In this document: piece after piece, positions 1 to 40,265 of the stretch
Numbering within the stretch: the stretch's first letter is position 1
Layout of the letters: every line of letters starts with the position of its first letter
From: a virus
IMG/VR virus record: IMGVR_UViG_3300047494_000107
Span: 32,001 to 96,000 of that record
Strand: one strand, 5' to 3'
DNA length: 64,000 nucleotides
Notes under the pieces: generated by a model
Told to the model about the DNA's origin: nothing
Database searches by the model: none
What the model saw: only the letters and a program-made list of their open reading frames with translations
Translations under genes and position numbers: made by a program

Positions 1-1338
1 ACTGGGACGACCAGCGCTACCGTAGCCATCGGCAACGACAGCCGGATCACAGGTGCCGAGCAGACGTCCAATAAGGGTGCTCCCAGCGGTTACGCAGGCT
101 TGAATAGCGCCCAGCAGGTGGCGGTCGCCAACCTTCCCGTTGGCACGGCAGCAGGGACTGTAGCGGCCGGCAATGACAGCCGCATCTCTGGAGCTGAGCA
201 GACCTCGCACAAAGGTGCAGCAAGCGGCTACGCCCCGCTGAACGCGTCCTCGCAGGTACCGATCGGGAACATCCCAGTCGGCACAACCAGCACGACGGTC
301 GCTGCGGGTAACGACACGCGCATAGCGAATGCGGAGCAAGTCGGCAACAAGGGCGTCGCGAGCGGGTATGCGCCGTTGAACGGTTCCGCTAAAGTCCCGG
401 CAACCAACCTGGATGTTGCGGCGATCACCACGCCTGGTGTTGTTCAGGTGCCGACCACGGGTCTTATCGTCGATTCGTCCGGCAACGTCCAGGTCAGCAA
501 CCAAGTTCTATTCGCGATGATCGACACGGCGTTGCGGTCACTCGCAACGTCACCGACAAATCCAGGTGAGTACTGGAACAATGGCGGCGCTCCTGCGCGC
601 GTGCCTGGGACGTTCGTGCCCGCGAATGCGACGAGCCAAGCGCAGATTTTCCTGCAGACCGTCTTCACGGCACTCCCGACCACACCAGGCGCGGCCGGCA
701 CGTACTGGATGAACGGCGGTTTGCCGACGAAAGTTCCAGGGACGCTTGCGTCGCCTGCCACAACGACCCAAGACGCGTCGACCGCACTGTTGAATTTGGC
801 GCAAACGACGGGCGGTTCCGCGTCTGAGTGGAACAACGGCGGCGGTATATCTATCCGTAACACACCGGGCGTCATAGCGCCGCCAGTGGCGACGACCGCT
901 TCAACAGGTGTTGTCGCTGTGCCGGCGACCAGCCAGTTGGCGGTTGATACGTTCGGCAACATCGGCGTGAACAATCAGATTCTGTTCACCATGATCGACA
1001 CTGCGGTTCGGTATCTCCCGACGACGGTACCGAACGTCGGCGAGTACTGGGTCGACGGCGGCAAGCTGGCGCGACGACCGGGAGCGTTTGTGCTTGCGGC
1101 GGCATCAAGCCAGGCGCAGATCTTTTTGGTCGGCACGTTCGGCGCACTTCCAAATGCACCCGGCGGGGCAGGCACTTGGTGGAATAACGGCGGTTTCCCG
1201 ACACGTGTGCCAGGAAATCTCGTCACCTATGTGTCCGCCACACAGGACGTCTCCACCGCGCTTACGAACCTCCCCTTCAGCCCGGGTCGGTCAGGAACCG
1301 AGTGGGTCGACGGCGGCAGGTATGTCATCGTCAACTAA
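1..1338 (+). CDS. Tail-fibre-like repeat protein (5' partial)
   Basis: Frame is open from base 1; ~44-aa repeats GNDSRIxGAEQxxxKGxxSGYAPLN; duplicated C-terminal block with Wx(N/D)GG motifs. Confidence 0.7.
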   Translation, partial: TGTTSATVAIGNDSRITGAEQTSNKGAPSGYAGLNSAQQVAVANLPVGTAAGTVAAGNDSRISGAEQTSHKGAASGYAPLNASSQVPIGNIPVGTTSTTVAAGNDTRIANAEQVGNKGVASGYAPLNGSAKVPATNLDVAAITTPGVVQVPTTGLIVDSSGNVQVSNQVLFAMIDTALRSLATSPTNPGEYWNNGGAPARVPGTFVPANATSQAQIFLQTVFTALPTTPGAAGTYWMNGGLPTKVPGTLASPATTTQDASTALLNLAQTTGGSASEWNNGGGISIRNTPGVIAPPVATTASTGVVAVPATSQLAVDTFGNIGVNNQILFTMIDTAVRYLPTTVPNVGEYWVDGGKLARRPGAFVLAAASSQAQIFLVGTFGALPNAPGGAGTWWNNGGFPTRVPGNLVTYVSATQDVSTALTNLPFSPGRSGTEWVDGGRYVIVN

Positions 1339-1416: not shown

Positions 1417-4233
1417 ATGCGCGCTTTCAATTTCGTCTTTAGCGCCCTCGCGACGCTGGCTGTATCATCGCCGCTGTTCGCGCAGACGCCGCCTGATTCG
1501 TCTTTGCCGTTCGGCGCGCTGCTTCAGACTCAGAACGCGACAAACTCCGACACACGGCTTGAGGCCACTCAGGGCTATGTCCTCGCTCACGCGTCGGCGG
1601 TTTCGGTGCCGGTGGCGAGTGTGCTGGCCGGCGTCACTTCCGGGTCTACTACCGTTCTGCAGGCCGCCACGGCGTCGGGCATTGAAAGCGTCCTCGGTTT
1701 CACGCCGCTTAGCCCCGCGAACAATCTGTCTGAACTGACGTCTACGGCAGTGACGGCCAGGTCGAATCTTGGTGTGCCGCCTGTTCCGACCAACGCCACT
1801 GTCCTAGGTTGGAATTCGGGCGCTTGGTACGCTCCTGCGCTATCGGGTAGCGGTACCACTGTGATGACGTCTAGCCAGACGTCATTCACGCTCGGCGATG
1901 TGTTGACGCCGTCCGGTTCGGGCGATCTTGCCGACCTCGGCGTGATGAATTTGTCCAGCACCGTGGTCACGATGCAGGGTGCTCAAAACAACATTTATTT
2001 CACGCCATCTGCAGCCGCCAACACCCAAGACGTTATCGGGACCAGCGGGACGGACACGAATGTTAACCTGCGGTTCACGATGCAGGGCGCGGGTGCGGCG
2101 CAGTTCCAGAATGCCGGGGCGACATGCCCCGTCAATATCGGCTCGGTGAACGGTGGGTCTCCCTTCATCAACACAGGCGGTGTGGCATGCGACCTGTATG
2201 TGTCGGCGGGGACCTCCGCCGGTGCGAATAACATCCATTTTCAGCCGGCCGGTCTTCAGGTTCTTGAACTGAGCGTCGCGAGCGGGTCACCGACTGGCGG
2301 CGTGCAGATTACGAGCGGCGCTGGCCAAGCCAAAATCGGTGTCATTGATGGCACGAACGCTAACTCGAATCTGATCTTGGCGGCCAAAGGCACTGGCACT
2401 GTCCAGGCGCCGACGAATTCGTCCGCTATCGATTCCACGGCGCAGGTGGCGACGGATAAGTTCGTGCAAAACGCCATGGCGGCGGTTGTGCCAAATATCC
2501 CCGCGGTGTCGCCGATCTGCAGCACGACGATGGCGACGGGCACAACTGGCAACCCAGGCGGCAACGTCTACGGCCGCAAGGTGTTTTATTGCCCCCAGGG
2601 CGGCAGCCCTCTTCAGCTTCTGATTCCTAGTTTTTACGTCAGCGGGTCTCAGGTTGAGACGCCGTTGACCTCAGTTATCATGGTCAATCTGTCGGTGCAG
2701 CCGAACTTGCCGGCGCCGTGGAATCCAGCAACGACCTATACGAGCGGACAAAGTGTCACGTACACGCCGACGGGCACGTCCAGCGCGCCGACACCATACG
2801 TCTATACGGCGACGACATCTAACACGAACAGTCTGCCGACTCCTGGCAACAGCAACTGGTCGGCCGGCACGGAACCAGCTCGCGTTTCGGTCACGTGCAA
2901 TCATTCGCAGACATGCATCATCCCGGTGACGTTGACCGGGGCCGGCGTCTATCAGACCGCAGCCGACGTCCTGACCGATCCGATTCCAGTCGCGGTCTCT
3001 GCTGGGTCGTACCTTGGCGTCTACACTTGGATGCCGAAGACCAGCGCCAACAGCCAGTACGCAGGCACGTCGCAGGGTTTCGTTGAACTCGGCGACAGCC
3101 TGCATGTGTCGCAGTTCGGGGTCGACCTCACGGCGTCTGGGGATACGAACACCAACACGGCTGGTGGTTTTCCCGTCACCGCGATCGTCGGTGTGCGCAC
3201 CACGCCGGGCCCGAGCGCTTGCGTTATCGGGACGAGTCTTGACGACGGGTTCTCTGAGGCGGGCGGCGGTCTGAGCAGCTTCACTTTCGTGAGCGCCGGA
3301 ACTGGACACACATCGGCGGAAATTGGGCATCGACTGCGGATGAACAACGCGGGCGCCAGTACCCACGCTGTCGGCCAGGTTGTGGCAGGTGCGGGGAACG
3401 GTGGTATCGGCACGGGCACCGTCGACAACGGCGCAGAGTTCATTATCTCGTCCGTATCAGGCGGCGCTGTAACGCTGACGACAGCCTGGAACGGTATCTA
3501 CAGTTCCGGTCAAGGGGAGACGGTACCGAACGGCACGCAAGGTTTGTACGATCTGGATTCGTCGACCCCTACGACCTTGACCAACATCACGATCACACCG
3601 AACTTCGGTTTGGCAACGTACGACAACTACCACCAGTTCTTTCAGCGCGGGATGCTTGCTCGCGGTCTCAACGATGCCGACATCCCGACGGTCATGCTGG
3701 CGCGCAGCGGCGATACACTCGTCGGCTTTCTGTCTCGCGCCGTTGACCGGTTGGCGGAAATTCAGCGCGTCGGCTGCAGCACGGTCATCATCGACAGCGG
3801 CTACAACGATCTATCGGCGGGCACGTCTGCGTCCGTAGTAGAGGGATATATCACGTCGGTTGCGCAGGAAGTCGCGCTTATTCCGGCTGTAAAGTCGGTC
3901 CTCGTGGCGACGATCAAGCCGTTGGCGATCACGACGACGGACGGTTTTGAGACGACCGCCAACATGACGGTCAGTGCAAACAACGCCAATGTCCAAGCCG
4001 TCAACGCCTGGATGCGTACGAATTTCGCCGGGGCCGCAGCGCCACCTACGCAGACCGCTCCGATCACCGGCTACTTGGAGATATCGGACACGCTGTCGCC
4101 GAACCGCGACGGCAAGCTGATCCCAGGAACCGGTGTCGTCTGCCAATACACCGCTGATGGGGTGCATTTGACGCCGGCCGGTTACGCGAAAGTCGAGACG
4201 GCTGTTGCCGCACAAGCGGGGAAGATCCTGTGA
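1417..4233 (+). CDS. Exported fibre-like protein with CBM5/12-like module and C-terminal SGNH hydrolase
   Basis: Signal peptide (..SPLFA|Q); fibre motif DSTAQVATDKFVQ; WNPATTYTSGQSVTY..NWS; SGNH blocks IGTSL, GYND, DGVH. Confidence 0.7.
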   Translation: MRAFNFVFSALATLAVSSPLFAQTPPDSSLPFGALLQTQNATNSDTRLEATQGYVLAHASAVSVPVASVLAGVTSGSTTVLQAATASGIESVLGFTPLSPANNLSELTSTAVTARSNLGVPPVPTNATVLGWNSGAWYAPALSGSGTTVMTSSQTSFTLGDVLTPSGSGDLADLGVMNLSSTVVTMQGAQNNIYFTPSAAANTQDVIGTSGTDTNVNLRFTMQGAGAAQFQNAGATCPVNIGSVNGGSPFINTGGVACDLYVSAGTSAGANNIHFQPAGLQVLELSVASGSPTGGVQITSGAGQAKIGVIDGTNANSNLILAAKGTGTVQAPTNSSAIDSTAQVATDKFVQNAMAAVVPNIPAVSPICSTTMATGTTGNPGGNVYGRKVFYCPQGGSPLQLLIPSFYVSGSQVETPLTSVIMVNLSVQPNLPAPWNPATTYTSGQSVTYTPTGTSSAPTPYVYTATTSNTNSLPTPGNSNWSAGTEPARVSVTCNHSQTCIIPVTLTGAGVYQTAADVLTDPIPVAVSAGSYLGVYTWMPKTSANSQYAGTSQGFVELGDSLHVSQFGVDLTASGDTNTNTAGGFPVTAIVGVRTTPGPSACVIGTSLDDGFSEAGGGLSSFTFVSAGTGHTSAEIGHRLRMNNAGASTHAVGQVVAGAGNGGIGTGTVDNGAEFIISSVSGGAVTLTTAWNGIYSSGQGETVPNGTQGLYDLDSSTPTTLTNITITPNFGLATYDNYHQFFQRGMLARGLNDADIPTVMLARSGDTLVGFLSRAVDRLAEIQRVGCSTVIIDSGYNDLSAGTSASVVEGYITSVAQEVALIPAVKSVLVATIKPLAITTTDGFETTANMTVSANNANVQAVNAWMRTNFAGAAAPPTQTAPITGYLEISDTLSPNRDGKLIPGTGVVCQYTADGVHLTPAGYAKVETAVAAQAGKIL

Positions 4234-4688
4234 AATATCTGACACGCCTACTTGTCGCGCTGGCCGTCGCGTCGCTGCCGTTCTGTGCTTTCGCGCAGAT
4301 GCCGCGGATTCCTGGCTCTTATATCGGCTGGGCGACTGGCGTGAACATGGCGAGCACTGCTGATCAGCTCGTTTTCATCAATATCGGGGTACTGAACGTT
4401 CTGCCGACCCGCATGGTGTTGAAGAATTGCAGCGCGACGAACAGCGCCGCGGTAGGTGGCCTGTACACGGCGTCCAGCAAGGGCGGCACGGCGATAGTGT
4501 CGGCCTCTCAAACCTATTCGACGACAGTGGGTACAGGTGTTTCCCAGAGCGTCTCCATCAGCGGATCGACGATTTACACCGTGGGTCCGGGTGGCACAGG
4601 CAACTGGTTTTACTTTTCGTTGAGTACGGCAGGGTCCGGCACCTGCGACATCGTTTTGTTCGGCGATGACTACACGGCGCCGCTGTAA
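4230..4688 (+). CDS. Exported beta-rich hypothetical protein
   Basis: Signal peptide ..CAFA|Q; GTGA overlap with upstream gene; two Cys in mature part. Confidence 0.75.
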   Translation: MKYLTRLLVALAVASLPFCAFAQMPRIPGSYIGWATGVNMASTADQLVFINIGVLNVLPTRMVLKNCSATNSAAVGGLYTASSKGGTAIVSASQTYSTTVGTGVSQSVSISGSTIYTVGPGGTGNWFYFSLSTAGSGTCDIVLFGDDYTAPL

Positions 4689-4715
4689 ATCGCCGCACCA
4701 AAGGTTAGGTATAGT

Positions 4716-6692
4716 ATGCGTACGTTTCTGACTGGTTTGGCAGTTTCGTTCGGGGCGCTCCTTGCCGCTGCGACGGCTTTCGCGCAGACGCCGCCTGACT
4801 CGTCGTTGCCCGTCGGGTCGCTTCTGCAGCCTCAGCCGTACACCAATTCTGACACCCGTCTTCAGGCTACTCAGGGGTACGTGCTTGCGCATGCTGGCAC
4901 TGTCCAGGTGCCGACCGCCAGTGTATTGGCCGGCTCGGGAAACGCGCTGGTTGCGGCGACCGGCACTGGTATCGCAAACGTCCTCGGTTTCACACCGCTT
5001 AGCCCCGCAAACAACCTGTCTGAGCTGACGTCGACGGCCTCGACTGCTCGGTCGAACCTCGGCGTTCCACCTGTTCCGAGCGCTGCGGCGGCAGTGCTGG
5101 GTTGGAGCACGTCGACCGGGTGGACGTCGTCGTCTATCTCGGGGTCCGGCTCGACTCTTATGAGTTCGGCTCTGACGGCTTTTACGGCGGGCGATGTTCT
5201 CACACCGTCAAGCACAGGCGACCTTGTTGACGTCGGGCTGCTGAACCTCAACAGCGCCGGAACGCTAGCGCTCATCAAGGGCGCGCTTCATGTCCAGTCG
5301 TCTGGCGCGACATGCCCTGTCAACATTGGGTCTTCGAGCGGTGGCGTTCCCTTCATCAACACGGCTGGGGGCGCCTGCGATCTAGCCGTCACAGCTGGTA
5401 CGTCGGGCGGCACCAACAACCTCAAATTTTATCCGGACGGCCTTCAGGTTCTTGAACTGAGCGTGTCGTCCGGCACGCCGACAGGTGGCGTGCAAATCAC
5501 CGGAGGTGTCGGTCAGGCGAAAATTGGCGTCATCGACTCTGGGGCCAACTCCAATCTGGTTTTGGCGGCCAAAGGTACTGGCACTGTCCAGGCTCCGACG
5601 AACTCGTCCGCAGCAGACAGTACAAATCAGGTGGCCACTGACGGCTTCGTTCAGTCGGTGGCTGACGCGTTGGCGCCGAGCAGCACTACAGTCAACCCCA
5701 CGACACCCCCGTCTCTCGTCGGCCTGACAAGCACGGCCGGCAGCACCACGCCGATCACACTGGGCACGGGACTGACGCTAACGGGCGGTGTTTTGAGTTC
5801 CACTGGCAGCGGGTCGGGGTCTGGATCAGTCGCTAGTGGCGCGCTAGGCACTATTGCCTACTACGCTGCAGCCGGTACGTCGGTCGTTGGCGGTACGCCG
5901 TCTACGATCGGTATTGCTTCACTGTCGGCCACACAGACCTTCACCGGAAATAACACGTTCACTGGCACGGTGACGCTTCCTGGTGGCTACTTGCCTTCGA
6001 ACTTCAACGGCTGGACGACCGGCAGCCCTGTTGCGGTAACCAATTTAACGACGAATGACGGTTCGACTGATATCGCCACTGATGCGTTCGTCCAGGCAAA
6101 TGAGGCGCTTATTTCGCCGCAGGTGGCCGATAACACGCACTATCTGCTTGCACCTACGAGCACACTCGGTGCCACGCAGGTAATCACACTCGGCAGTAAC
6201 CTGTCCATTGCGAGCGGCGTTCTGAGCGCTACAGGCGGTGGCGGCTCTGGTTCGGGAACTGTCGGAAACGGAAGCCAGTATCAGGTCGCGTATTACAACG
6301 GCACAGGGACGACACAATCGGTCATTGGCGGCTCTCTTTCCACCATAGGTGCGGCGCCGATCGCCAGCCCTTACTTCACAGGTGTAATGGCGTTCAACAA
6401 CGCTGGTTCTGCGCCGATCATCAAGACAGCGAGCGAGACTTTAGCTGCCACGTATCAGTCTGTGCGCGAGTACAAACCGACCGCTAGCGGGTTGACAGTT
6501 ACGCTGTTTACGCCGTCAGGGGGAGCCCCCTACCCGAACTTCATTCTGCATAATTCCGCAAATTTCAGCCCTTCAACGGGCGGTTTCAATGTCACAGTTT
6601 TGGCACCGGATGGTTCTACCGTCATTGCCACCGAAGCGCCTGGTGGTACATGCGGCGCCAAATACGACGGCACGACATGGGAGTGCTGGTAA
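4716..6692 (+). CDS. Exported tail-fibre-like protein, paralogue of 1417..4233
   Basis: Signal peptide; N-terminal ~300 aa similar to the 1417 protein; fibre motifs QVATDGFVQ, DIATDAFVQ, APIASPYFTG; C-terminal YDGTTW. Confidence 0.75.
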   Translation: MRTFLTGLAVSFGALLAAATAFAQTPPDSSLPVGSLLQPQPYTNSDTRLQATQGYVLAHAGTVQVPTASVLAGSGNALVAATGTGIANVLGFTPLSPANNLSELTSTASTARSNLGVPPVPSAAAAVLGWSTSTGWTSSSISGSGSTLMSSALTAFTAGDVLTPSSTGDLVDVGLLNLNSAGTLALIKGALHVQSSGATCPVNIGSSSGGVPFINTAGGACDLAVTAGTSGGTNNLKFYPDGLQVLELSVSSGTPTGGVQITGGVGQAKIGVIDSGANSNLVLAAKGTGTVQAPTNSSAADSTNQVATDGFVQSVADALAPSSTTVNPTTPPSLVGLTSTAGSTTPITLGTGLTLTGGVLSSTGSGSGSGSVASGALGTIAYYAAAGTSVVGGTPSTIGIASLSATQTFTGNNTFTGTVTLPGGYLPSNFNGWTTGSPVAVTNLTTNDGSTDIATDAFVQANEALISPQVADNTHYLLAPTSTLGATQVITLGSNLSIASGVLSATGGGGSGSGTVGNGSQYQVAYYNGTGTTQSVIGGSLSTIGAAPIASPYFTGVMAFNNAGSAPIIKTASETLAATYQSVREYKPTASGLTVTLFTPSGGAPYPNFILHNSANFSPSTGGFNVTVLAPDGSTVIATEAPGGTCGAKYDGTTWECW

Positions 6693-6693
6693 G

Positions 6694-8094
6694 GTGCTTA
6701 TCCAGCGTCGCAGGAGCATTCTGCGGACTATCCCCGCTGTTGCGATGGCGGATTACTTCCGCCGCATAGAATGGGCACGGGCGAACGGCGCAAGCACGCT
6801 CGGGGATTCTGGTTTCGCGTGCGACTGGCGTGACATCACTCGTCAAGCCTACGCGCTGAACAGCCCGTGGAACACGCCGATCGGGAAGGGCGCGCAGTAC
6901 GGTCTGTCGACTGACGCTGACGTCCTGGCGCTTCAGGCACTCGGCAGCGCAAGCTACACGAATGGGTCGTCGACGAAATCTCACGTCCATTCCGGCGACA
7001 ACAACGCCCAGCTATGGGTCGTGTCGACGGCGTCCGATCCGCTCATTCCCGTGACGGACATATCCAACTCGTCGAGCCCTGACTGGGCGGGTTCATCGAC
7101 CCCTGTGCATATCCCGCTGGGGACTCGCCCCTATGGGGGCACAGAACATCTTAGTGTCATTGACACCGCGCAGAGTATCGTCTGGCATGGCTATTTGTGT
7201 CAGGTATCCGACGCAAGTGGCAGCAACTATCAGTACTACAATCCGGTTGTCTCGAACAGTAAGATACAGTTCAAAGGCGGCCGGTTTAACGATCTTTACG
7301 GCAACGCTGTTAGCCCGTGTACAGCGCCCGGCATCCCGTCAACCGAGTTGAACCGGCTGGGCTGGGGTGACTGCGCGCTGCGGGTCGAAGATGTCCTAGA
7401 CTTCTACGGCCCGAATAACCAGCGGATGGATTCAATCCGCCACGTTCTTCGCTTTGCGTTGAGCGTAGCCGAGATGAACGGCTACCTGGATACCGCGCCT
7501 AACACCCCAGGTTTTCATTGGCCAAACGTTGCGGTCGACTACTGCTACAACAAAGCGGGGAGCGGCACGGCGGGCGTAACGGCGGCATACGTTGGCAGTC
7601 AATACACCTCGGCGTGCGGCGCAACGGGCAACAGTCTGTATTCGGCCGGCGGTCAATTGGGAATCTCGACGGGGGGTATCGACCCCTGCTTGCTGTTTGC
7701 CATACCTACCATTGAGCAGAATGGCCCGGACATCCGGACAATCCGCACTCCGGACAATAACCTGCTTACCCCGGAAGCCATGGCGGTCGCTTGGACATTG
7801 CAGAATTTCGGCATGATGTGGCGCGACAGCACAGGCGGCGATCAGATCGCGCTGAAGTGCGATCCACGGCTCACCTCTGCCGCAGCGACTGGCGGGTGGC
7901 CGTATCGCCCAGCGTACAGCGCCGCGACTCAGCAGTTCTACAATGCGATCGTCTACGCATTCCCGACGCTGATGACATACATGTCGATCGTCCGAAACTA
8001 CTCCAACGGCTCGGATGGTTTGTTCCCCTATGCGGGTGGCGGCGGCCTCTACACTCGTCCTGCCGCACCGTACGGACCGGGAGATTGCCTGTGA
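6694..8094 (+). CDS. Hypothetical protein with possible twin-arginine leader (carbohydrate-active?)
   Basis: GTG at 6694 immediately after upstream stop; RRRSIL..WARA|N leader; SPWNTPI and LQNFGM motifs. Confidence 0.6.
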   Translation: MLIQRRRSILRTIPAVAMADYFRRIEWARANGASTLGDSGFACDWRDITRQAYALNSPWNTPIGKGAQYGLSTDADVLALQALGSASYTNGSSTKSHVHSGDNNAQLWVVSTASDPLIPVTDISNSSSPDWAGSSTPVHIPLGTRPYGGTEHLSVIDTAQSIVWHGYLCQVSDASGSNYQYYNPVVSNSKIQFKGGRFNDLYGNAVSPCTAPGIPSTELNRLGWGDCALRVEDVLDFYGPNNQRMDSIRHVLRFALSVAEMNGYLDTAPNTPGFHWPNVAVDYCYNKAGSGTAGVTAAYVGSQYTSACGATGNSLYSAGGQLGISTGGIDPCLLFAIPTIEQNGPDIRTIRTPDNNLLTPEAMAVAWTLQNFGMMWRDSTGGDQIALKCDPRLTSAAATGGWPYRPAYSAATQQFYNAIVYAFPTLMTYMSIVRNYSNGSDGLFPYAGGGGLYTRPAAPYGPGDCL

Positions 8095-8261
8095 AACTCC
8101 GTTATTGGATTCTTGTGTGCGGACCTCTGATCTACGGCGATATGCCGTCGCCTGACCAGTTCGCGCAGAACGATGTGGTCCAGACAGATGCCTCGCAGCC
8201 AGTGACACAGCCAGCCGCGCAGCCGACCACCCAGTCCGCGCCAGAGGCGCCTGCCCGGTGA
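8091..8261 (+). CDS. Small hypothetical protein
   Basis: GTGA overlaps at both ends; hydrophobic N-terminus and QP-rich tail. Confidence 0.5.
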   Translation: MKLRYWILVCGPLIYGDMPSPDQFAQNDVVQTDASQPVTQPAAQPTTQSAPEAPAR

Positions 8262-10009
8262 ACAAGCGCTGCAGTTTGATGGCGCTCGTGGCCGCGTTCG
8301 CGGTCCCTGCGGTTGCCGATGCGACCACTTGGTATGTTGATCCGCTTCATGGCAGTAACAGCCACGCAGGAACGTCGCCGTCTACGGCGTTTCAAACGGC
8401 GAGCCACGCGTATAGCCATACAGGCGGCGGGGTTTCACCGGGCGACACCGTTGTTCTGATGGCCGTCACCAGCAGCGGAGCGGTTGTCCCGCTGGCTAAT
8501 ATCGGCATCTACGGGCCACGAGAGCAGAATGGCACGGCGGCACATTTCGGAACGTCAAGTAATCACGTTCACTGGGTTGGTGGCGACGCGAACGGAAACC
8601 CGCTTACCCCGAATACAGACATATCCACTTCTCTGTGCAGCAATTCTAGCGGCGGCAGCAGCTTGCTGCCTATTTTCAGCATGCCATCCGGTGCGGGCAC
8701 CAATGTCGTTGTTCAGATCAAAGGGGGTAATACGGGGTCTACTCCAGGGTCTGGAATAAACGGTATTTTCATGGATTTTACCTGCATAAGTTTTCAGGGT
8801 ACGACAACACCAGGTTCACGGTACTTGCCATCGCAGCGTGGCAGTAAGGGCCCGATATCCGGCGTGTATATCAACACAAGTTCCGATATATGGTTTCAGA
8901 ACGTCGAAGTTGCCTACACAGGCGGGGACGGCTTGGGTACGGAAGCCACTGAAAATATATTTGTGGACCACTCGTGGTTTCACGATAATGCCTATGATAT
9001 CCCCTTCTACGATGGCGTTGAAGCGTACGGCTCCGCGCTCTCGTATTTGCGAGGATATGATTGGTACAACTACACAAGCGGGGCGTCGGTATACAGCACG
9101 CAAGTTGCGTTTGGCATAACCAACAGCCGTTTTTGGAATAACTATAATGACACGAGCACTTGTACGTCAGGAGAGCCCTGCAGCCCGACAGACGGTGAGG
9201 CCATTGAGCTTGACCGCAACGACGGGTCTTGTGAAGGCGATTTGGGGCCTTGCACGTCTGACGACCCCGGTACAGGCGCGGACAACCATCTGCCGCCGTT
9301 CACGGCGAAAATTCTCGTCGCCAACAACCAGATATGGCAGTCGGGTGGTCCAGGCATCAACTCGTACTTGACCGCCGGCCTCGTCGACATACTCGGCAAT
9401 TCGCTCTATTTGAACAACTTCAAGTCGACGAACTCCGGGTCAAACCAAGGCGAGATCAGTCTTAGCGGCGCCGCTGCGCCCCCTACGACGACAGGCGGCG
9501 TCGCATCGCCGCTAGCGTCTCAAAACTATGGCGCTCGGGTTATCGGCAATATCGGGTATTTCAACAGCAGTTTTGTGCGCTCAAATAATTCTAGCGCCCA
9601 TGCACGGTGTATTCAGGTTGAGAATAACGGTCAAACGTCGTTAAATGGAACCTACACTCCAGTCGGTTCGCCAAGTATATTGAAGAACAACCTATGTTAC
9701 GACGTGGCGGGTAGCACGTCTTACACCACGTACTTTACAAGCAACAAGACGACTCCCGCGCTGAGCACCGTAAACGGTAATGGCACGACGAGTGCGATAC
9801 TTCTCGGCAATCCGCTGTATACCTCGCCGTCGACGTCAAGCAGCGCGAACTTTCAATTGTCGCCTACCTCACCGGCTTTCGGGTTCATCGCCGCTAGTAC
9901 AAGCGAATATCTATCTCCCGACACGCTTGGTGTTGCGCGTGTGCAATCAGACCTGACGGCAGGCGCTTTTCAGGGTTCTTCGTCCACTACGTCGCTTTGC
10001 CATCGGTAA
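8258..10009 (+). CDS. Exported right-handed beta-helix (pectate-lyase-like/depolymerase) protein
   Basis: Signal peptide ..ADA|T; WYVDPxxGSNxxxGTSPxxAFQT N-cap; Asn-rich coil repeats; NFQLSPTSPA C-cap. Confidence 0.7.
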   Translation: MNKRCSLMALVAAFAVPAVADATTWYVDPLHGSNSHAGTSPSTAFQTASHAYSHTGGGVSPGDTVVLMAVTSSGAVVPLANIGIYGPREQNGTAAHFGTSSNHVHWVGGDANGNPLTPNTDISTSLCSNSSGGSSLLPIFSMPSGAGTNVVVQIKGGNTGSTPGSGINGIFMDFTCISFQGTTTPGSRYLPSQRGSKGPISGVYINTSSDIWFQNVEVAYTGGDGLGTEATENIFVDHSWFHDNAYDIPFYDGVEAYGSALSYLRGYDWYNYTSGASVYSTQVAFGITNSRFWNNYNDTSTCTSGEPCSPTDGEAIELDRNDGSCEGDLGPCTSDDPGTGADNHLPPFTAKILVANNQIWQSGGPGINSYLTAGLVDILGNSLYLNNFKSTNSGSNQGEISLSGAAAPPTTTGGVASPLASQNYGARVIGNIGYFNSSFVRSNNSSAHARCIQVENNGQTSLNGTYTPVGSPSILKNNLCYDVAGSTSYTTYFTSNKTTPALSTVNGNGTTSAILLGNPLYTSPSTSSSANFQLSPTSPAFGFIAASTSEYLSPDTLGVARVQSDLTAGAFQGSSSTTSLCHR

Positions 10010-10350: not shown

Positions 10351-12186
10351 ATGCCAAACATGGACGTCCCGTTCCAGGGTTCCACGCTCATCATTCCGGG
10401 TGCCTATTACGCTGACAACGTCAGTGCCGCGCTGCCCGCCAACGCGCCCGTCACGCCGCCTCTGCTGTTCGTCGGCTTCGGCTACGGCCCAAAGCCGTTG
10501 ACGATCAACCAGTTCAGCAGCACACAGGACCTGCAGACGGCGCTTCGTGGCGGACCTGCCTCGGCTTTCATCCCCTTCATCGCCACGCCTTCGCCGCAGC
10601 TCAATGGCGCGCAGATCGTCACGTTCATTGATGTCAGTTCGAACACCCAGAGCACCATCAACCTGACCGGCGGCACGGGTGCGACCAACGTCCTGGCGTT
10701 GACGTCGGACCTTTATGGGTTGCCGTCGAACCTGTTGCAGACCAGCGTATCCACCTCGTCGTACGGCGCGGTCTACACCGGCAACACGAATGCCGCGGCA
10801 TCGCGCCTTCTGACGATCTACGACGGCTATACCGGCACAACGGTTCAGCAAGACAACCTCGGCATTCCGTTCCAAGTCGCTTACACGGGCGCTGCGTCAG
10901 CCGCGAGTTACACCGTCACGGCTACGGGCGGTGTTGCCACGAAGATCGTGCTGACGAGCAGCAATCCGGGCGAGAGCGTCACGGTTCCGATCAGTTCGGG
11001 TGCTTACCAGACCATTTCTCAAGTCGTCAGTTACATCGAAGGCACAGGTTTCTGGACAGCGAACACGCTGACCAACGGCGATTTGCCCGCGACGAACCTC
11101 GACGCTGGCAGTGGTGTTCTTCCGGTCCCGTCGGGCAGTACGCTCACGTATGGCTATCCGTCGGCCACACTCGGCGATGTCGTTTGGTGGATCAACAACC
11201 ACGCCGGCAATCTCGCCACGGCGTCTGTTAGCGGGTCGCCCACGGCTGGTCCTGCGAGCGCTCTGACGGCGCTGCCGTTGACGCATTTCACGGGCGGCCA
11301 GAGCATTCCGCCGACGACTTCCAGCTACGCCAGCGGTCTGACTGTGGCGCTGTCCACGGCGGCTTGGACGGTTATCACGGACACCGCGGCTCCAGCCGCC
11401 CAGCAGCTCATGGCGCAGCACGCCTTGCTGGCGTCCGAGCCTGGCTATGGCAAGTGGCGGCGCGCGGTCACGGGTTCGAACCTGGGTGATAGCGTCTCGA
11501 CGACGCTGACGAACGCCGCGGCTTTGAACGTCGTTGAGGCGACCTACGTCTACCCGGGCATTCAGCGTGCTGATCCGGTGAGCGGCCAGATCATCAACCG
11601 ACCTGGTCTCTACGCCGCGGCGGCTGTGGCGGCGATGATGACGGGCAATGGCGCCAATGTGCCGCTGACGAACAAGGCGCTCGTCGCGTCCGGCATGGAG
11701 TTGAACAACAACCTGCCAGTTAGCTTGACGCTGTCGCAGATCGACCAGCTTCAACAGGGCGGCGTCATGCCGATCGCTGTGCTGGACAATACGCGTGTGC
11801 CGAAAGTCGTGTCGGATTTCACGACCTGGCTGATCGACGACAATCCCGAGAACGTCTTCAACCAGCAGATCGCCGAAAGATTCTACCTCGCCTACACGAT
11901 GGTGAACACGCTGCAGCCGTACGTGGGGACCACTGCTGACCCGTATGACGAGATGAAGATCTTGAATGCGGCGAAAGCGGCGTTGAACAACGTCACGTAC
12001 AGCCAGGGTAACCCGACTGGGGTGATCTCGTCATGGGACCCCAGCACATTGGCGCTGGTCTACTCGGGCAGCAATCAGGTCGCGGCGATCACGGTGAACG
12101 CGGTGTTGGTGGGCCAGAACAGGTTTATCACATGCGTCGTTAACGTACTGGCGCTGAATATCTCCATTACTGCGTCTTCGACCTAA
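10351..12186 (+). CDS. Contractile tail sheath protein
   Basis: 611 aa; N-terminal IIPGAY; AAAVAAM..PLTNK..L..GGV sheath C-terminal pattern; directly precedes tube gene. Confidence 0.88.
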   Translation: MPNMDVPFQGSTLIIPGAYYADNVSAALPANAPVTPPLLFVGFGYGPKPLTINQFSSTQDLQTALRGGPASAFIPFIATPSPQLNGAQIVTFIDVSSNTQSTINLTGGTGATNVLALTSDLYGLPSNLLQTSVSTSSYGAVYTGNTNAAASRLLTIYDGYTGTTVQQDNLGIPFQVAYTGAASAASYTVTATGGVATKIVLTSSNPGESVTVPISSGAYQTISQVVSYIEGTGFWTANTLTNGDLPATNLDAGSGVLPVPSGSTLTYGYPSATLGDVVWWINNHAGNLATASVSGSPTAGPASALTALPLTHFTGGQSIPPTTSSYASGLTVALSTAAWTVITDTAAPAAQQLMAQHALLASEPGYGKWRRAVTGSNLGDSVSTTLTNAAALNVVEATYVYPGIQRADPVSGQIINRPGLYAAAAVAAMMTGNGANVPLTNKALVASGMELNNNLPVSLTLSQIDQLQQGGVMPIAVLDNTRVPKVVSDFTTWLIDDNPENVFNQQIAERFYLAYTMVNTLQPYVGTTADPYDEMKILNAAKAALNNVTYSQGNPTGVISSWDPSTLALVYSGSNQVAAITVNAVLVGQNRFITCVVNVLALNISITASST

Positions 12187-20417: not shown

Positions 20418-21632
20418 TTAGCCGACCCACTCTATGATACACAGACCGTCAGCGCCGTTGCCGCCTCCGTAGCCGTTGCCGCCCGCGCCGTTGCCGCCCA
20501 TGCCGGGGTAATTTCCGGGCGAGCCTGCGCCGCCCAAGTTACCTGTTCGGCCGCCGCTGCAGAACGACCCGCCGCCCACGCCACCTACGATAGCACCTGC
20601 AGCTATTCCAATGGAGAACCCGCCGAAGTTGCCGGTAAAGGCCAGACCGCCTGTGGCCGAACCTGGCGTTCCTCCCGAGTTCCCGTTGCCTGCCCCCGCG
20701 CCACCACCATAAGCGATGAGCGTCCCAAACACGGACGCGTTTCCGGCCGCACCATTCGCAGCCGCTCCGCCGCCCGCGCCGCCCGCGCCCACCGAGAAGC
20801 TCAGCACCTGCCCCGACGACACGGTGATGATGTTCTCAACATAACCAGCGCCTCCGCCACCCGTGCCACCCGCCGCCGAGCCGCCGCCACCACCGCCGCC
20901 ACCGCCGCCCCAAAGTCTGATTTTTGCGTAATTTACGCCTGCTGGGACGGTCTGCGTACTACTGCCCGGCCCGAAAATGAGCAGTGCTTTCGGAACCGCG
21001 GAGAAAGTCGGACGACCGTCCGCGTCAACGGTTACCAGACTGCTGGCATATGTCCCCGACGGAATATCAAGCTGAGCCCCGGCACGAACTTGGAAGGCTG
21101 TGGAGAAGTTCGTAACCGTCGTACTGCCGTGTGTGAGCGTCCCTCGCGCAATCTCCAGACTGCCGGCCGGCGTCGTCGTACCAACGTTCAGCGAAAAGCT
21201 ATCGACCACATTCGAATACGCCACGTATGGTATGAAGTTAGGGTCATACGAAGGGTGCCCCTGGGGCGGTCCGATCACCGTGAACGGACCTTGCTGCACC
21301 GTGGTCGGCGTCGCGTACCAATAGACGCTCAGCGTCCCACTACTCGGCACCAGCGACGTCGCGTTCACGACGTAGGTCTGCGTGTCCGACCCGTTCGTCG
21401 CCCCGTGCGCGCGAGCGGCGAAGTCTCCGTAGATCATCTCAAACGGCGCCGGGAATGTGGCCGTCAACGTCAACCCGCTGAAATTGTAAGTCGCGACACT
21501 CTGGTTTAGGAGCCCAATCTTGTTGGACCCGCGCTGCCGTTCAGCGATCGACGCCGTGACGGCTTGAAAAGCGGCGTCAAGCACAACGGACGAGACGTAT
21601 TGTTTATTTGAGAAGTTCGGTGTCGACGACAT
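20418..21632 (-). CDS. Baseplate/tail fibre protein with glycine-rich C-terminal domain
   Basis: Last gene of baseplate operon; TVPAGV..LWGGGGGG..GADG.CIIEW glycine-rich domain. Confidence 0.75.
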   Translation of the reverse strand: MSSTPNFSNKQYVSSVVLDAAFQAVTASIAERQRGSNKIGLLNQSVATYNFSGLTLTATFPAPFEMIYGDFAARAHGATNGSDTQTYVVNATSLVPSSGTLSVYWYATPTTVQQGPFTVIGPPQGHPSYDPNFIPYVAYSNVVDSFSLNVGTTTPAGSLEIARGTLTHGSTTVTNFSTAFQVRAGAQLDIPSGTYASSLVTVDADGRPTFSAVPKALLIFGPGSSTQTVPAGVNYAKIRLWGGGGGGGGGGSAAGGTGGGGAGYVENIITVSSGQVLSFSVGAGGAGGGAAANGAAGNASVFGTLIAYGGGAGAGNGNSGGTPGSATGGLAFTGNFGGFSIGIAAGAIVGGVGGGSFCSGGRTGNLGGAGSPGNYPGMGGNGAGGNGYGGGNGADGLCIIEWVG

Positions 21633-28479: not shown

Positions 28480-29519
28480 TGCGTGCCGACCTTCTTCATG
28501 TCGTGACGGCTATCTCCAATCCGGTTCGCTGGAAGAGCCGCTTGTCGCTCTACAAAGACTTTGAGCAGCACATGCTCGAAAGTGGCGTCAAACTCTATAC
28601 CGTCGAGTGGGCTTTGGGTGATCGGCCGTTCGAAGTGACATGCGCCGACAACCCAATGCACCTGCAGATCCACGGCAATGACCTGCAAGAGATCTGGATT
28701 AGGGACGCTCTGATCAACGCGGGTGTCCGCACGCTGCTGCCGAAAGAAGCGAAATATATCGCCTGGATCGACGCCGACATCAAGTTCTTGCGGAGGGACT
28801 GGGCGGCTGAGACCGTCCATATGCTCCAGCACTACGCCGTTGGTCAGGTGTGGACGAACAGCATCGACGTGGCGCCCAACGGCGACATCGCACCGAACGA
28901 GTGGAACAACTCGGCGGATCGCTCCTTTTGCGCAGCGTGGCAAGCCGGTGACCTGGACGACCCGTGTGAAATCGGCAAACAGATCGCAGCCGGTTCAAGT
29001 TCACCGCCTCCAAGCGCGTTGGCGGCCCGACCAAAGTCGAGCGTGTTCAAGCGCCCGGACGGCAAAGAGAAAGACTGGAGAGCACACACCGGCTACGGCT
29101 GGGCGATCCGCAAGGACGTGTTCTCCGAGATGGGCGGCCTTCTTGACTGGATGGTGACGGGTAGCTGCGATTGGCACATGGCGCGTGCATTCGTCGGGCT
29201 GCCGGAGCCGAACGACCAGCGGATGACACCGGCCTACAACAGGCGTTTACAGGAGTTCTGGCTGCGGGCTGACCGCGCTGTGAAGCAGAACGTCGGCGTG
29301 GTGCCGGGGACCGTCGTGCATGGCTGGCACGGGCGTAAGAAGGATCGCCAGTATTTCACGCGGTTCGACGTGCTGATCGACAGCAAATTCGACCCTGACC
29401 TCGACCTTTCGTACGACTGGCAAGGCATCCCTCAGATCACAGGCGACAACCGTCAGCTCCGCGACGGGCTGCGCAAGCTAGCGCGCAACAAGAATGAAGA
29501 CTCCGTCGATATCGCCTAA
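28479..29519 (+). CDS. Putative GT-A fold glycosyltransferase
   Basis: W.RD.LIN.G..YIAWIDADI (DxD); HTGYGWA..GG..GS.D; H.WHG. Confidence 0.65.
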   Translation: MRADLLHVVTAISNPVRWKSRLSLYKDFEQHMLESGVKLYTVEWALGDRPFEVTCADNPMHLQIHGNDLQEIWIRDALINAGVRTLLPKEAKYIAWIDADIKFLRRDWAAETVHMLQHYAVGQVWTNSIDVAPNGDIAPNEWNNSADRSFCAAWQAGDLDDPCEIGKQIAAGSSSPPPSALAARPKSSVFKRPDGKEKDWRAHTGYGWAIRKDVFSEMGGLLDWMVTGSCDWHMARAFVGLPEPNDQRMTPAYNRRLQEFWLRADRAVKQNVGVVPGTVVHGWHGRKKDRQYFTRFDVLIDSKFDPDLDLSYDWQGIPQITGDNRQLRDGLRKLARNKNEDSVDIA

Positions 29520-29538
29520 CACCACAGGACCCAACACC

Positions 29539-30072
29539 GTGAACAAGACTGCTCTTTTCGCCGCTACCATCCTCGCCGCGTCGACGCCGCTGTTCGCACA
29601 CGCTGCGGATATCGTCGTCAGTGCGGCGCCGATCACGGACTACCTGCAGCCGGCTGTCGACGCCATGAAAGCGGGGCTGGTTGCGGCGCTCAGCGCGTGG
29701 CTCATCAAGCATGTGCGCAATCAGCTGCTTCGCGCGGCGCTGCAGAAAGCGATCGTGTCGGCCGGGGCAGGCGTCTACAGCGCCTTGGTGATCGGCGGCA
29801 AGACACTACTTGATGGCGGCTTGGTCGAAGGCGCCGTGGCGTCGAAGACGAACGCGCTCATCGCCGCTTTTCCCGACACGATGAAGACGCTCGGCGTGAC
29901 ACCGGCCGACCTGCACAACGCTGTCGCCAATGCGTTCGGGCTGCACCTCGCCGCCGACCCAACCGTGACACTGCCGAAAGTGGTAGCGACGAAACCCGCA
30001 ACCGCTAACGCGGACACGACGAACACTACCCCCGCTACGACCGTCTCAGGCGGCACCGTAGCCGTTTCGTAA
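29539..30072 (+). CDS. Membrane protein in lysis module (holin-like)
   Basis: Signal-like N-terminus plus hydrophobic segments. Confidence 0.5.
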   Translation: MNKTALFAATILAASTPLFAHAADIVVSAAPITDYLQPAVDAMKAGLVAALSAWLIKHVRNQLLRAALQKAIVSAGAGVYSALVIGGKTLLDGGLVEGAVASKTNALIAAFPDTMKTLGVTPADLHNAVANAFGLHLAADPTVTLPKVVATKPATANADTTNTTPATTVSGGTVAVS

Positions 30073-30092
30073 CCACAGAAGGACCAATAAAC

Positions 30093-30614
30093 ATGCGCGT
30101 TCTCATCGGCGGTGGCACTGCTGGCCGCCGCGCATTCCTATCCGGCACCGCTCTCGTGAGCGTCGCCGCCCTGGCCGCCTGCGCCGGCACCGCGGTGACC
30201 ACACCCACTCCGACAACCCCGTCCGTCATCGCGACCAATGTGGCGCTAATCTCGACCGGCCTCTCTGTGCTGTCGACCGAAATCGCGGCTGCGGGTGTCG
30301 CCGTGCCGGCCGCTGTCACCAAGGACCTGGCGACGCTCCAGGCACTTGCGAAGGCCGCCGCGGCTGCCACAGTCAGCGACTCGGTCACGACAGTCCAGTC
30401 GGTCATCACGACCGTGCAGGACATCGCCTCCATCGTTCCTGCGCTCGTCCCAGGCTCGGCGACGATCATCGCACTGGTTCAAGCGGCGCTATCTCTGCTG
30501 CCCGTCCTGAAAGCGGCTCTCCCGGCCAGCGTCAAGCTGAGCGCGCTGGCGCCGCCGAAGTACACACCGGACCAAGCACGTCTCATCCTCTCTGGCGCCG
30601 TACTGGCGCGCTGA
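30093..30614 (+). CDS. Twin-arginine lipoprotein (spanin candidate)
   Basis: RRAFL followed by lipobox LAA-C; hydrophobic helices near the C-terminus. Confidence 0.6.
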   Translation: MRVLIGGGTAGRRAFLSGTALVSVAALAACAGTAVTTPTPTTPSVIATNVALISTGLSVLSTEIAAAGVAVPAAVTKDLATLQALAKAAAAATVSDSVTTVQSVITTVQDIASIVPALVPGSATIIALVQAALSLLPVLKAALPASVKLSALAPPKYTPDQARLILSGAVLAR

Positions 30615-37564: not shown

Positions 37565-37822
37565 TCACCAATGGGTCAGCGGTGCCCGCACGGTGACTGC
37601 CCAAGGCGTGGTGGCTGGGGCGGTTTGCAGAACAATCCCGACGCTCACTTTCGTTACCCAGACACCCTTATACTGAATGACAACACCAGGAGAGACCTTC
37701 GAAAATTGTGCTCCTGTGTTTTGCAGCACAACACCAGGAGAGACCTTCGAAATCTCCGCCTGCTGTGCCATTGCGATGCTCGGAAGAAACAACATCAGCC
37801 CAGCGACAATCCAACGGATCAC
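37565..37822 (-). CDS. Small exported repeat protein
   Basis: Signal peptide ..AMA|Q; three xxKVSxGxVxQ repeats; 25-bp direct repeat at 37680/37728. Confidence 0.7.
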   Translation of the reverse strand: MIRWIVAGLMLFLPSIAMAQQAEISKVSPGVVLQNTGAQFSKVSPGVVIQYKGVWVTKVSVGIVLQTAPATTPWAVTVRAPLTHW

Positions 37823-38925
37823 GGGATCGTCTCCACCCCAAAGTCAACGCCGGCAGCGGTCAAATCAGACGGCAACCATGCAACGCCAGTGTTGGGATTT
37901 GTCGCCTGAATATAGCTGCTGAAGTTCGAGAAGCTATTCGTCGGAGCATAGCTGCTGCTGAGATAGTCCGTGCCGCCGACCCGCGTATCGAACTCGAAGT
38001 GCTGAGGACCAGACGAACCAACCAATGCCTGAGCGCTCATCGCTACGCCAAGCACGCTATAACTGCCGCTGGGTAGCGTGTTGTAGATGGCGCAGTTGTG
38101 CAGAACGTTGTTCGATGCGCTGTAGGCGTAGTTAGCTTGGTTCAGCGTCGAAGCATTCCAAATCGACGAGCAGACGTTCGTGCCACTCAAGCCGGTGCTA
38201 TTGCCATTTGCGTTTGTGTAGGCCGTGAAGACGCCCATGGCGCGCGTGTCGGTGGTGGCGACGATGACTTCGGACCAGAGACCTAAGTTAGTTTGGGGCA
38301 CTGCGAACTCGACCTGGTTAAGCGTCGTAGCTCCATCGCCATTCGTGACGTTACCAGTATAGTCACAGACTTGTGTGCTGTTACTATAAAGAGTAACTTC
38401 CCCGCTTGATCCGTAGTTCACATACATGTCGAATTGATCAAGCGACGCAGGGATCGCGGATGAACATGTGACAAGGTCGGTAAATGTGCCCCCTGATGTG
38501 CGGGATGATATCTTTACCTGGCCATTCGTTCCGGTGCCTCGCACAATTAATGTCGGGTTTCCGCTGCTATCGTTAATTCGCAACATCTGATAGTTGGACG
38601 CCGTCGTGGTTATGCAAGTATTTGAGTTATCGGTGCAATACTGCCCGTGAATCCAAATAGTAGAATTTCCTGCGAAAGTAGACGTTTGAAACCTGTTCAC
38701 AGGCGGATCAGAGGCGGAAGTATCGGAAACGTCATACGAGCCACGGGACCAGGCTGAGCGGTAAAGCCCAGATGGCGCAGTAAATCCACACGTGCCACCA
38801 CTCAAGCACGTAAAGTCCGAGTCCTCTTTACCCACGAACAATAGCGTCGCTTGCGCCGAGTGCGCTGCACCCAGCATCAGCCCAATCAGCACCAATAGCG
38901 GGAAAAGCCGACGAATGAAGTTCAT
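37819..38925 (-). CDS. Exported beta-sandwich/lectin-like protein
   Basis: Signal peptide ..AQA|T; paired Cys; C-terminal NPNTG.AW...L...FG. Confidence 0.75.
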   Translation of the reverse strand: MNFIRRLFPLLVLIGLMLGAAHSAQATLLFVGKEDSDFTCLSGGTCGFTAPSGLYRSAWSRGSYDVSDTSASDPPVNRFQTSTFAGNSTIWIHGQYCTDNSNTCITTTASNYQMLRINDSSGNPTLIVRGTGTNGQVKISSRTSGGTFTDLVTCSSAIPASLDQFDMYVNYGSSGEVTLYSNSTQVCDYTGNVTNGDGATTLNQVEFAVPQTNLGLWSEVIVATTDTRAMGVFTAYTNANGNSTGLSGTNVCSSIWNASTLNQANYAYSASNNVLHNCAIYNTLPSGSYSVLGVAMSAQALVGSSGPQHFEFDTRVGGTDYLSSSYAPTNSFSNFSSYIQATNPNTGVAWLPSDLTAAGVDFGVETIP

Positions 38926-39530
38926 GAACCATCTCCAATAAAGACATAAGCTGCGGCTGAGCCGTTATTCGATATGACCGTCGCACCAATGATTGATTTC
39001 GACCCATAGGTGCCCGTGAAGCTGTGTGGCGAAGTCAGCGTGGCCCCCGAGCCGGCCGACAGAGTGACCTTGGCGGTGCCGCCCTGGATCATCCCGATGT
39101 TACACCCGGCCGCTAGGCTGTTAGGTAATGTGACGGTTACAGCGCTGTTGGAGCTGAAGTTGATCAAGGTGCCGCAGTCAGAGGCTGCTAGCGTATACGT
39201 GGTGCCGCTCTGCGTCGAAACTGCGCCGTAGACGGCACCGAACGTCTGTGGACCCGTCCAAGTGTTGGTGCCCGCGAGAGAGACGCCGCCCGTGCTGCAT
39301 GTCATAGTTCCACTCGAAATTGTACACCCCGACAGATTAAGAGGCGTTGCTGCTCCAGCTCCGCCTGTGCCTCCATATATTTGAGACGTTGTGCCGGACG
39401 GAATAGCCGACGTAATCGCGCTGGAAAGTTGCCCCGATGTCACCCCCGGCGGCGGGATAGGTCCGCCAGCAAACGCCTGCGAAACCCCGAGCAGTGCGCA
39501 CAGCCAAAGTGCGACAAATTTTACCATCAC
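38922..39530 (-). CDS. Exported protein with tail-fibre-type C-terminal domain
   Basis: Signal peptide ..AFA|G; NTWTG.QTF; TQSGTTYTLAASD.G..AVTVTLP..IQGG...VT. Confidence 0.75.
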   Translation of the reverse strand: MMVKFVALWLCALLGVSQAFAGGPIPPPGVTSGQLSSAITSAIPSGTTSQIYGGTGGAGAATPLNLSGCTISSGTMTCSTGGVSLAGTNTWTGPQTFGAVYGAVSTQSGTTYTLAASDCGTLINFSSNSAVTVTLPNSLAAGCNIGMIQGGTAKVTLSAGSGATLTSPHSFTGTYGSKSIIGATVISNNGSAAAYVFIGDGS

Positions 39531-40135: not shown

Positions 40136-40265
40136 GACCGCCTCCAAGGAGGCAGCATTTTAAGACGTCTCAGTCTTTAGACGGCAGGGTTGCTGTCTGC
40201 CTTCAGGTCGACAAGTATGTTCTTATAGTCACAAGGTAGCAACACGGCGTTAAGCGGTCTAAAAT

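Follow-up and report, generated by a model that had tools for sequence, protein, structure and literature searches.

The window analysed here is a 64,000-nucleotide stretch of viral DNA, bases 32001-96000 of the 110,533-bp IMG/VR virus record IMGVR_UViG_3300047494_000107, a record that has direct terminal repeats, is rated complete and has a guanine-cytosine content of ~60%. At the left end of the window, between the head-completion genes and the tail sheath gene, lies a block of seven coupled late genes, five of which encode Sec-type leaders ending in AxA and one a twin-arginine (Tat) leader, and judging from these N termini the block proteins are probably sent out of the cytoplasm. The late operon in which they lie runs on the + strand from terminase, portal, a 1224-aa protein with glycosyltransferase domains, protease and major head protein to the head-completion genes; beyond the block come sheath, tube and a tape measure that includes a lytic domain. 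The sheath gene (10351-12186, + strand) forms the downstream edge of the block, encodes no signal, matches phrog_279 (E 2e-28) and gives distant tblastn matches to annotated sheaths. The block genes overlap one another, contain no promoter-like or terminator-like break and read through into the sheath gene, and the absence of such a break together with the overlaps rules out the block as a separate transcription unit. An earlier reading of this DNA from its letters (the sequence-only reading) had reported Sec-type leaders on 1417, 4230, 4716 and 8258 and an RR leader on 6694 (genes are named by their first position in the window), and had placed them just before the sheath gene in the structural operon; translation and rule-based scores confirmed the leaders, and the sheath match confirmed the location.

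At genome level the block proved larger than this, with a sixth leader on a 1120-aa fibre, here called fib0, that starts upstream of the window at genome position 29976, 2024 nt before its first base, and whose 3' two-thirds occupy window positions 1..1338 (+ strand, as do all the block genes). The fib0 leader, METLSTRCKSLVLLASTALALVFTSTVYA/GSP (the slash marks the predicted cut), is of the Sec type, and the protein matches phrog_13892, a minor tail protein family, at E 4e-35 and phrog_2012 at E 7e-23. Just before fib0, and overlapping its start, lies a signal-less gene of 441 aa (genome 28676-30001; L191:76-1401). No Pfam or PHROG match was found for this gene, and by eye its product repeats a GLPxGxxWxNG-type motif, which is found again at the C terminus of fib0.

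The next gene, 1417 (1417..4233; leader 1417-1482), encodes a 938-aa fibre-like protein with the N terminus MRAFNFVFSALATLAVSSPLFA/QTPPDSS and an SGNH/GDSL-like C-terminal domain at residues ~600-926. Its stop codon is overlapped (GTGA) by the GTG start of 4230 (4230..4688; Sec-type leader 4230-4295), a 152-aa orphan that begins (V)KYLTRLLVALAVASLPFCAFA/QMPR, has no Pfam or PHROG match and is possibly a partner or chaperone of a fibre. The 658-aa fibre-like protein of 4716 (4716..6692; leader 4716-4784) is a paralogue of 1417, begins MRTFLTGLAVSFGALLAAATAFA/QTPPDSS and has a C-terminal knob ending in CGAKYDGTTWEC. It is followed by 6694 (6694..8094), which encodes a 466-aa enzyme-like orphan with the N terminus (V)LIQRRRSILRTIPAVAMA/DYF; its twin-arginine leader (6694-6750) consists of RRSILR and then TIPAVAMA/D. 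A possible 56-aa gene at 8091..8261 has GTGA overlaps at both ends, this coupling being its sole support as a gene, and its product would have a short hydrophobic N terminus and a Pro/Gln/Thr-rich tail. The last gene, 8258 (8258..10009; Sec-type leader 8258-8323), encodes a 583-aa right-handed beta-helix protein of Pel9A/DUF1565-like type that begins (V)NKRCSLMALVAAFAVPAVADA/TTWY. In the leaders of 1417, 4230, 4716 and 8258, one to three basic residues are followed by 14-18 uncharged hydrophobic residues and then by the cut site, which is predicted at residue 22-23 as LFA/Q, AFA/Q, AFA/Q and ADA/T, respectively.

All signal calls were made with a rule-based test that asks for an n-region with net positive charge, a stretch of 8-18 hydrophobic residues free of charge, and small residues at -3/-1; for a Sec signal the small residues had to fall within 15-35 residues of the start, and a score of at least 3.5 was taken as a pass. 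The scores were 4.61 for fib0, 3.61 for 1417, 5.37 for 4230, 5.28 for 4716 and 5.58 for 8258. Five of the seven consecutive open reading frames (ORFs) of the module thus pass at 3.5 or above, compared with 0.8% of random internal positions in the proteins of the same genome (binomial P ~6e-10 for this test against this background). Signal-like N termini were found on about 13 of the ~110 genes of the genome; with the cut-off set at 4.0, they were found on 2.8% of the 427 ORFs examined in 37 other viral loci.

Eight further signal-like genes are present, in regions at 37565-40147 (-), 46895-47689 (-), 48105-48566 (-) and 29494-30614 (+). Four of these eight form an operon beside attP and have 0, 8, 4 and 4 cysteines in their mature parts, and one gene of the lysis region has RRAFL plus an LAAC lipobox. 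Of the 13 cleavage sites predicted genome-wide, 7 would expose Gln at position +1.

The gene calls supplied with the record start inside or downstream of the leader in 4716 (at Met149; P0006, 510 aa), in 8258 (at Met8; P0026, 576 aa) and in 6694 (at Met18; P0027, 449 aa). Conservation of the leaders could be tested with a true homologue for 6694 alone, and elsewhere through comparison of the 1417 and 4716 paralogues. Over codons 22-150 these two genes have 42 identical, 50 synonymous and 32 non-synonymous codons, a clear sign at the codon level that the mature part is under purifying selection in the leader-bearing frame, and P0006 leaves out 148 residues of 4716 under that selection. The stretch encoding FA/QTPPDSSLP is almost identical at the DNA level in the two genes. 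Upstream of it, the sole in-frame ATG, GTG or TTG in 1417 is the chosen ATG, and 4716 has one extra in-frame TTG, at codon 8, which still lies within the leader. Because purifying selection extends upstream of Met149 and no start lies between the leader and the conserved stretch, the leader has to be translated, and on this codon evidence the source start for 4716 is wrong. Within the leaders, drift is evident (3 identical, 3 synonymous and 16 non-synonymous codons, with a length difference of one codon), and both leaders keep the n-h-c layout and their hydrophobicity. Signal peptides evolve in this way, the sequence drifting while the n-h-c layout is kept.

In a word-index search of 5.8 billion proteins, 6694 returned a single homologue, P0028, at 49% identity, and 4716 and 8258 returned only the phage's own proteins. 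P0028 opens with MVAIHIPRRSLLKVGCAFGAGAAAMYA, a twin-arginine signal of classic form, and the first aligned residues are RRSILR in 6694 and RRSLLK in P0028. The motif RRS(I/L)L(R/K), which is of the (S/T)RRxFLK-like type, is thus kept between 6694 and its sole known homologue. A GGGAG stands 10 nt upstream of the GTG of 6694, and the longer form with the RR leader appears to be the better start. The Tat-like h-region, for which the criterion is ~12-20 residues, has 14 residues in P0028 and 8 in 6694 (TIPAVAMA, before AMA/D). The GTG start of 8258 overlaps the stop of the small upstream ORF in the same GTGA coupling as at 4230 and 8091, and the hydrophobic run and ADA/T are kept with either of its alternative starts; the choice of start is less clear here than for 4716 and 6694. 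The sequence-only reading had allowed for true starts downstream of the hydrophobic segments. This was not borne out for 4716 and 6694: the sequence ahead of the alternative start is under purifying selection in the first and has the conserved RR motif in the second, which rules out downstream starts.

Relatives of the fibre-like proteins were sought beyond the phage. With the N-part of 1417 as query, an exhaustive HMMER search returned 18 matches, all by way of the short shaft module, and a signal peptide or lipobox was found at the start of 5 of the 16 foreign homologues. At loci reached from two of the HMMER homologues, fibre-like relatives carry a signal in ~22 of 28 bacterial-genome loci, which include Bdellovibrio, Acidobacteriaceae and Bryobacteraceae, and in ~3 of 37 viral-contig loci. 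Taken together, the view that the N termini look like real export signals is supported at the sequence level, because the only in-frame upstream start is the one that includes the leader, the RR motif is kept in P0028, and the bacterial relatives mostly have signals.

The proteins behind the leaders are of more than one kind. 1417 and 4716 are 61% identical over 346 aa and have an N-part of ~340 aa in common, while fib0 shares with them only an NNLSELT..ARxNLG shaft module; apart from this module, 1417 and 4716 have a weak phrog_692 or DUF5907 match. The fibre motifs QVATDxFVQ, in the form QVATD(K/G)FVQ, and APIASPYFTG are present in 1417 and 4716 as the sequence-only reading described them, and in the mature fibres shaft-type motifs set in no more than ~20 residues after the cut. 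The SGNH esterase that it had proposed just passes at the C terminus of 1417, with 24.1 bits for PF00657 over residues 750-926 (cut-off 23.6), and PF13472 falls below its cut-off (24.5 against 32.9). Candidate catalytic residues, picked by eye, are Ser607, Asn797, Asp914 and His917 (in GTS607L, GYN797D and D914GVH917), with block I lying ~130 residues before the Pfam match, an arrangement in which an inserted domain must be assumed.

The beta-helix proposed alongside the esterase did not reach significance by family profile, PF13229 (Beta_helix) scoring 20.2 on 8258 against a cut-off of 25.9. The ESM Atlas clusters nearest to 8258 are bacterial right-handed beta-helix families, many of them DUF1565/Pel9A-like, with feature scores of 0.97-0.98 and template modelling (TM) scores for the fold of 0.52-0.66. 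The mature end, TTWYVDP..GS..AGT, opens the helix region directly, and no extra N-terminal domain was seen. On the strength of these modelled features, 8258 looks like a bacterial secreted beta-helix enzyme without a virion-docking domain. 4230 and 6694 are orphans. Sequence searches against solved structures yielded no match.

The closely paired cysteines CNHSQTC, CTSGEPC and CGAKYDGTTWEC, which had been taken as consistent with disulfide formation outside the cytoplasm, are present, but the disulfide argument itself stood up poorly, parity being mixed. The mature parts of the six proteins have 2, 9, 2, 4, 9 and 9 cysteines, counts that rule out cysteine parity as strong evidence for disulfides. 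The pair 237/258 of 1417 is conserved as 200/221 in its paralogue 4716, and the knob of 4716 has a further pair at 646/657. Even counts occur in 8 of 10 when all signal-bearing proteins of the genome are taken, and as a hint of disulfides this genome-wide count is only suggestive.

With its integrase and attP, the phage is by gene content a temperate myovirus. The attP holds the 5' half of tRNA-Thr(UGU), and a 37-nt attP stretch recurs exactly in more than 120 genome contigs, Alphaproteobacteria (Acetobacteraceae, Reyranella, Xanthobacter) making up nearly all of those listed. The lysis region has a GH108 endolysin gene followed by a lipoprotein-type gene. The host is probably an alphaproteobacterium with two membranes, because the tRNA-Thr half in attP matches Alphaproteobacteria, and the endolysin and lipoprotein-type genes fit such a host. 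Relatives of the phage itself were not forthcoming: INPHARED yielded none of use by megablast or tblastn (sheath matches only, at 24-27% identity), none was detected in IMG/VR viral contigs or JGI metagenomes, and none was found in GTDB genomes, including 401 genomes from the order of the Roseomonas genome that has an attP-matching tRNA-Thr.

The 1224-aa protein of the head module, encoded between the portal and protease genes upstream of the window (genome 16324-19998; L190:4324-7998), matches a glycosyltransferase family, phrog_7162, over residues 10-332 and has a GT2 domain spanning 772-995. Within a head module such a protein is unusual, and it could glycosylate virion proteins or the Ser/Thr-rich proteins.

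Baseplate genes on the minus strand converge on the late operon; among them are a Baseplate_J gene and the gene of a 404-aa fibre that has a glycine-rich domain. This fibre, the canonical tail fibre without a signal peptide, is encoded at 20418..21632 (- strand), starts MSSTPNFSNKQY and adjoins the baseplate I-like and J-like genes; it matches the tail fibre families phrog_863 and phrog_6202, and its neighbours match PF21722 and Baseplate_J. The sequence-only reading had considered both that the exported proteins join the virion and that they act as secreted factors. The presence of a signal-less fibre beside baseplate J/I weakens the first of these, an extracytoplasmic virion appendage, and for 8258 and 6694 it is the second, a secreted matrix-degrading enzyme, that the protein features favour.

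One interpretation of these data, to which we give a probability of about 0.5, is that the late-operon block encodes exported accessory fibres and enzymes that are periplasmic and are released at lysis, and that they are not ordinary virion parts assembled in the cytoplasm. The leaders and the fact that they are conserved, the order of the genes and the kinds of domain are seen in the sequence; export, cleavage, the site of action and the role are our inference. The block would provide three trimer-type fibre-like proteins (fib0, the SGNH-ended 1417 and the small-knob 4716) together with a partner, 4230, and two further proteins, the Tat-signal 6694, possibly enzymatic, and the Pel9A/DUF1565-like 8258, which would act on polysaccharide. 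The genes would be transcribed late with the head and tail genes, five of the proteins would be taken by Sec and one by Tat to the periplasm of the two-membrane host, and signal peptidase I would cut after AxA. Folding would take place in the periplasm, with disulfides possible in some of the proteins. Action on envelope or matrix polysaccharide would begin from the periplasm and would continue after lysis through free or envelope-bound factors, and the proteins might destroy receptors, clear matrix or mediate adhesion. The simplest proposal for 8258 and 6694 is that they would work as free enzymes on polysaccharide of the envelope or matrix, both ahead of lysis and after it. The fibres could be enzyme carriers or adhesins, and by staying on envelope fragments, or by clearing or masking receptors, they could keep progeny from being lost on debris, while the virion would keep its own signal-less fibre (20418-21632) at the baseplate.

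Several observations weigh against periplasmic accessory proteins of this kind. The genes lie inside the virion operon and fib0 strongly matches a phage minor tail protein, and both favour a virion role; moreover, two unrelated contractile-tail loci, L027 and L038, carry a signal in the true fibre slot. The evidence for export is a rule-based test on sequence. Cysteine parity is mixed, three of the six counts being odd, the 6694 leader has an h-region of only 8 residues, and 8258 may start 7 codons later, as in P0026, which would lose the charged n-region.

It could be that the fibres, once exported, undergo cleavage and oxidation in the periplasm and then dock as true appendages on finished virions, fibre-less or partly fibred, at holin lesions or just after lysis. 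Micron-scale holin holes would let cytoplasm and periplasm mix. The position of the genes within the structural operon, between the head-completion and sheath genes, would be accounted for, as would the match of fib0 to phage minor tail proteins (E 4e-35), and the 340-aa N-part common to 1417 and 4716 fits docking at one common site. The two loci just mentioned also bear on this, as both have signal-bearing proteins directly after baseplate genes. In L027, on the chromosome of a Bryobacteraceae metagenome-assembled genome (OZ255713.1, 9797-17853), genes for tube, tape measure with transglycosylase, hub, gp25-like, J-like and I-like proteins are followed by a 191-aa protein without a signal and then by proteins of 910 and 1756 aa with clear signal peptides (MKKGLLRAFVALLMATSVYA/QQ and MIARLLAIALLAVSFAQA/DS, respectively). 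The L027 fibre is the sole protein that aligns co-linearly with 4716 from residue 1, and the 191-aa protein might serve exported distal fibres as a baseplate adaptor on the cytoplasmic side. In L038, a low-GC viral contig (IMGVR_UViG_3300033067_000560, 8261-11683), a 1140-aa protein starting MRKIFFAALVIISFASSAQTW lies directly after sheath, tube, tape-measure and baseplate-hub genes, and two more signal-like proteins are encoded in the locus. The exported proteins of these other loci may, on their gene order, be real tail fibres. In the present phage, however, the baseplate slot is already held by the signal-less fibre, 8258 has no docking domain, shaft-type motifs come within ~20 residues of the cut site in the mature fibres, and no such case was found in the literature searched. 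Docking of exported fibres is accordingly rated as unlikely, and its strictest form, in which periplasm-made fibres snap onto finished myovirus particles only once holin lesions or lysis mix the compartments, as slightly less likely again.

A different possibility is that no export takes place, the hydrophobic N termini being unused by Sec or Tat. The proteins would then be cytoplasmic, with these segments buried in the trimer or docking site, or would be held by an uncleaved membrane tether, and some true starts would lie downstream. The choice of downstream starts for 4716, 6694 and 8258 by the source caller would agree with this, as would the short Tat h-region of 6694, the odd cysteine number in three of the six proteins and the rule-based nature of the signal evidence. 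Nevertheless, purifying selection and a conserved RR motif are found upstream of the alternative starts, A-x-A stands at the expected distance in every case, and the two paralogues keep the same n-h-c design despite a drifted leader, and an absence of export is considered improbable.

Least probable is lysogenic-conversion cargo, that is, captured bacterial-type surface fibres and enzymes, comparable to the adhesive fibres of Bdellovibrio, expressed in the lysogen and altering its surface, adhesion or matrix. In its favour, the phage is temperate with integrase and attP, signal-bearing fibre-like proteins are common in bacterial genomes, the clusters nearest 8258 are bacterial, and four signal-bearing genes make up another operon next to attP. 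Against it, the block is not delimited by any sigma-70-like promoter or terminator, its genes overlap, the first of them with the signal-less upstream gene, and run unbroken into the sheath gene, and the likeness to bacterial fibres is a 30-70-aa motif only.

Accessory fibres and enzymes acting from the periplasm can be compared with several known systems. A published precedent for exported fibres is given by the mosaic adhesive trimer (MAT) fibres of Bdellovibrio bacteriovorus, which are Sec-exported surface adhesins that resemble phage fibres and have a conserved domain after the signal peptide (Caulton et al. 2024, PMC10769870). The phage proteins are like them in having a signal peptide, an N-part conserved among paralogues, a long shaft of phage-tail-fibre type and variable tips, and the NNLS(D/E)L..ARxNLG shaft module of MAT fibres is common to the phage proteins. 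They differ in that the phage genes sit in a late virion operon, no S74 domain is present, and one phage fibre ends in an SGNH esterase. BLASTP of 1417, 4716 and fib0 against the Bdellovibrio fibre ORFs L019, L020, L007, L010 and L012, made with the conserved beta-rich MAT N-domain (~130 aa) in view, matched only the 30-70-aa shaft module, and membership in the Bdellovibrio MAT family was ruled out on the N-domain.

Phage tailspikes and fibres that end in an esterase or a beta-helix depolymerase are made without a signal peptide and with an N-terminal particle-binding domain. The block resembles these enzymatic tailspikes in combining a fibre or shaft with an SGNH esterase or beta-helix enzyme and in the location of its genes in the structural operon; unlike them, the block proteins have cleavable-looking leaders, and 8258 has no particle-binding domain. 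Bacterial secreted DUF1565/Pel9A-like proteins are nearest to 8258 by language-model features and predicted fold, and in both the helix follows directly after the leader, whereas 8258 has a sub-threshold Beta_helix score, is phage-borne and is without a sequence homologue in the word-index search.

Exported phage proteins are familiar as spanins, signal-arrest-release (SAR) or signal-peptide endolysins, lambda Lom and Bor, and T5 Llp. The block shares with them the Sec route of the host, and some of them are also encoded within late regions, but these are small lysis, exclusion or surface-modifying proteins, none is fibre-like with 650-1100 aa, and they do not come as a run of six. Tailed-phage assembly, in the textbook account, places every virion part in the cytoplasm. 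A full-text literature search found no paper describing signal peptides on tailed-phage fibres; the nearest was a note on Porphyromonas phages, in which signal peptides occur on capsid, spanin and unknown genes (Matrishin et al. 2023, PMC10367356). The present case adds a myovirus that encodes fibres with and without signals side by side, a Tat-type leader with a conserved motif, and two unrelated contractile-tail loci with a signal in the true fibre slot.

Automatic start calls masked three of the six leaders, so the number of such signals in phage catalogues is probably an underestimate. Sec and Tat leaders on a late-operon run of fibre-like and polysaccharide-acting proteins point either to a programmed attack on the envelope or matrix from the periplasm before lysis, or to assembly of fibres outside the cytoplasm. 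If exported fibres do dock on finished virions, a tailed phage would build part of its host-recognition apparatus outside the cytoplasm. Under either reading, the depolymerases and receptor-binding proteins of uncultured phages may need periplasmic or oxidising expression in order to fold.

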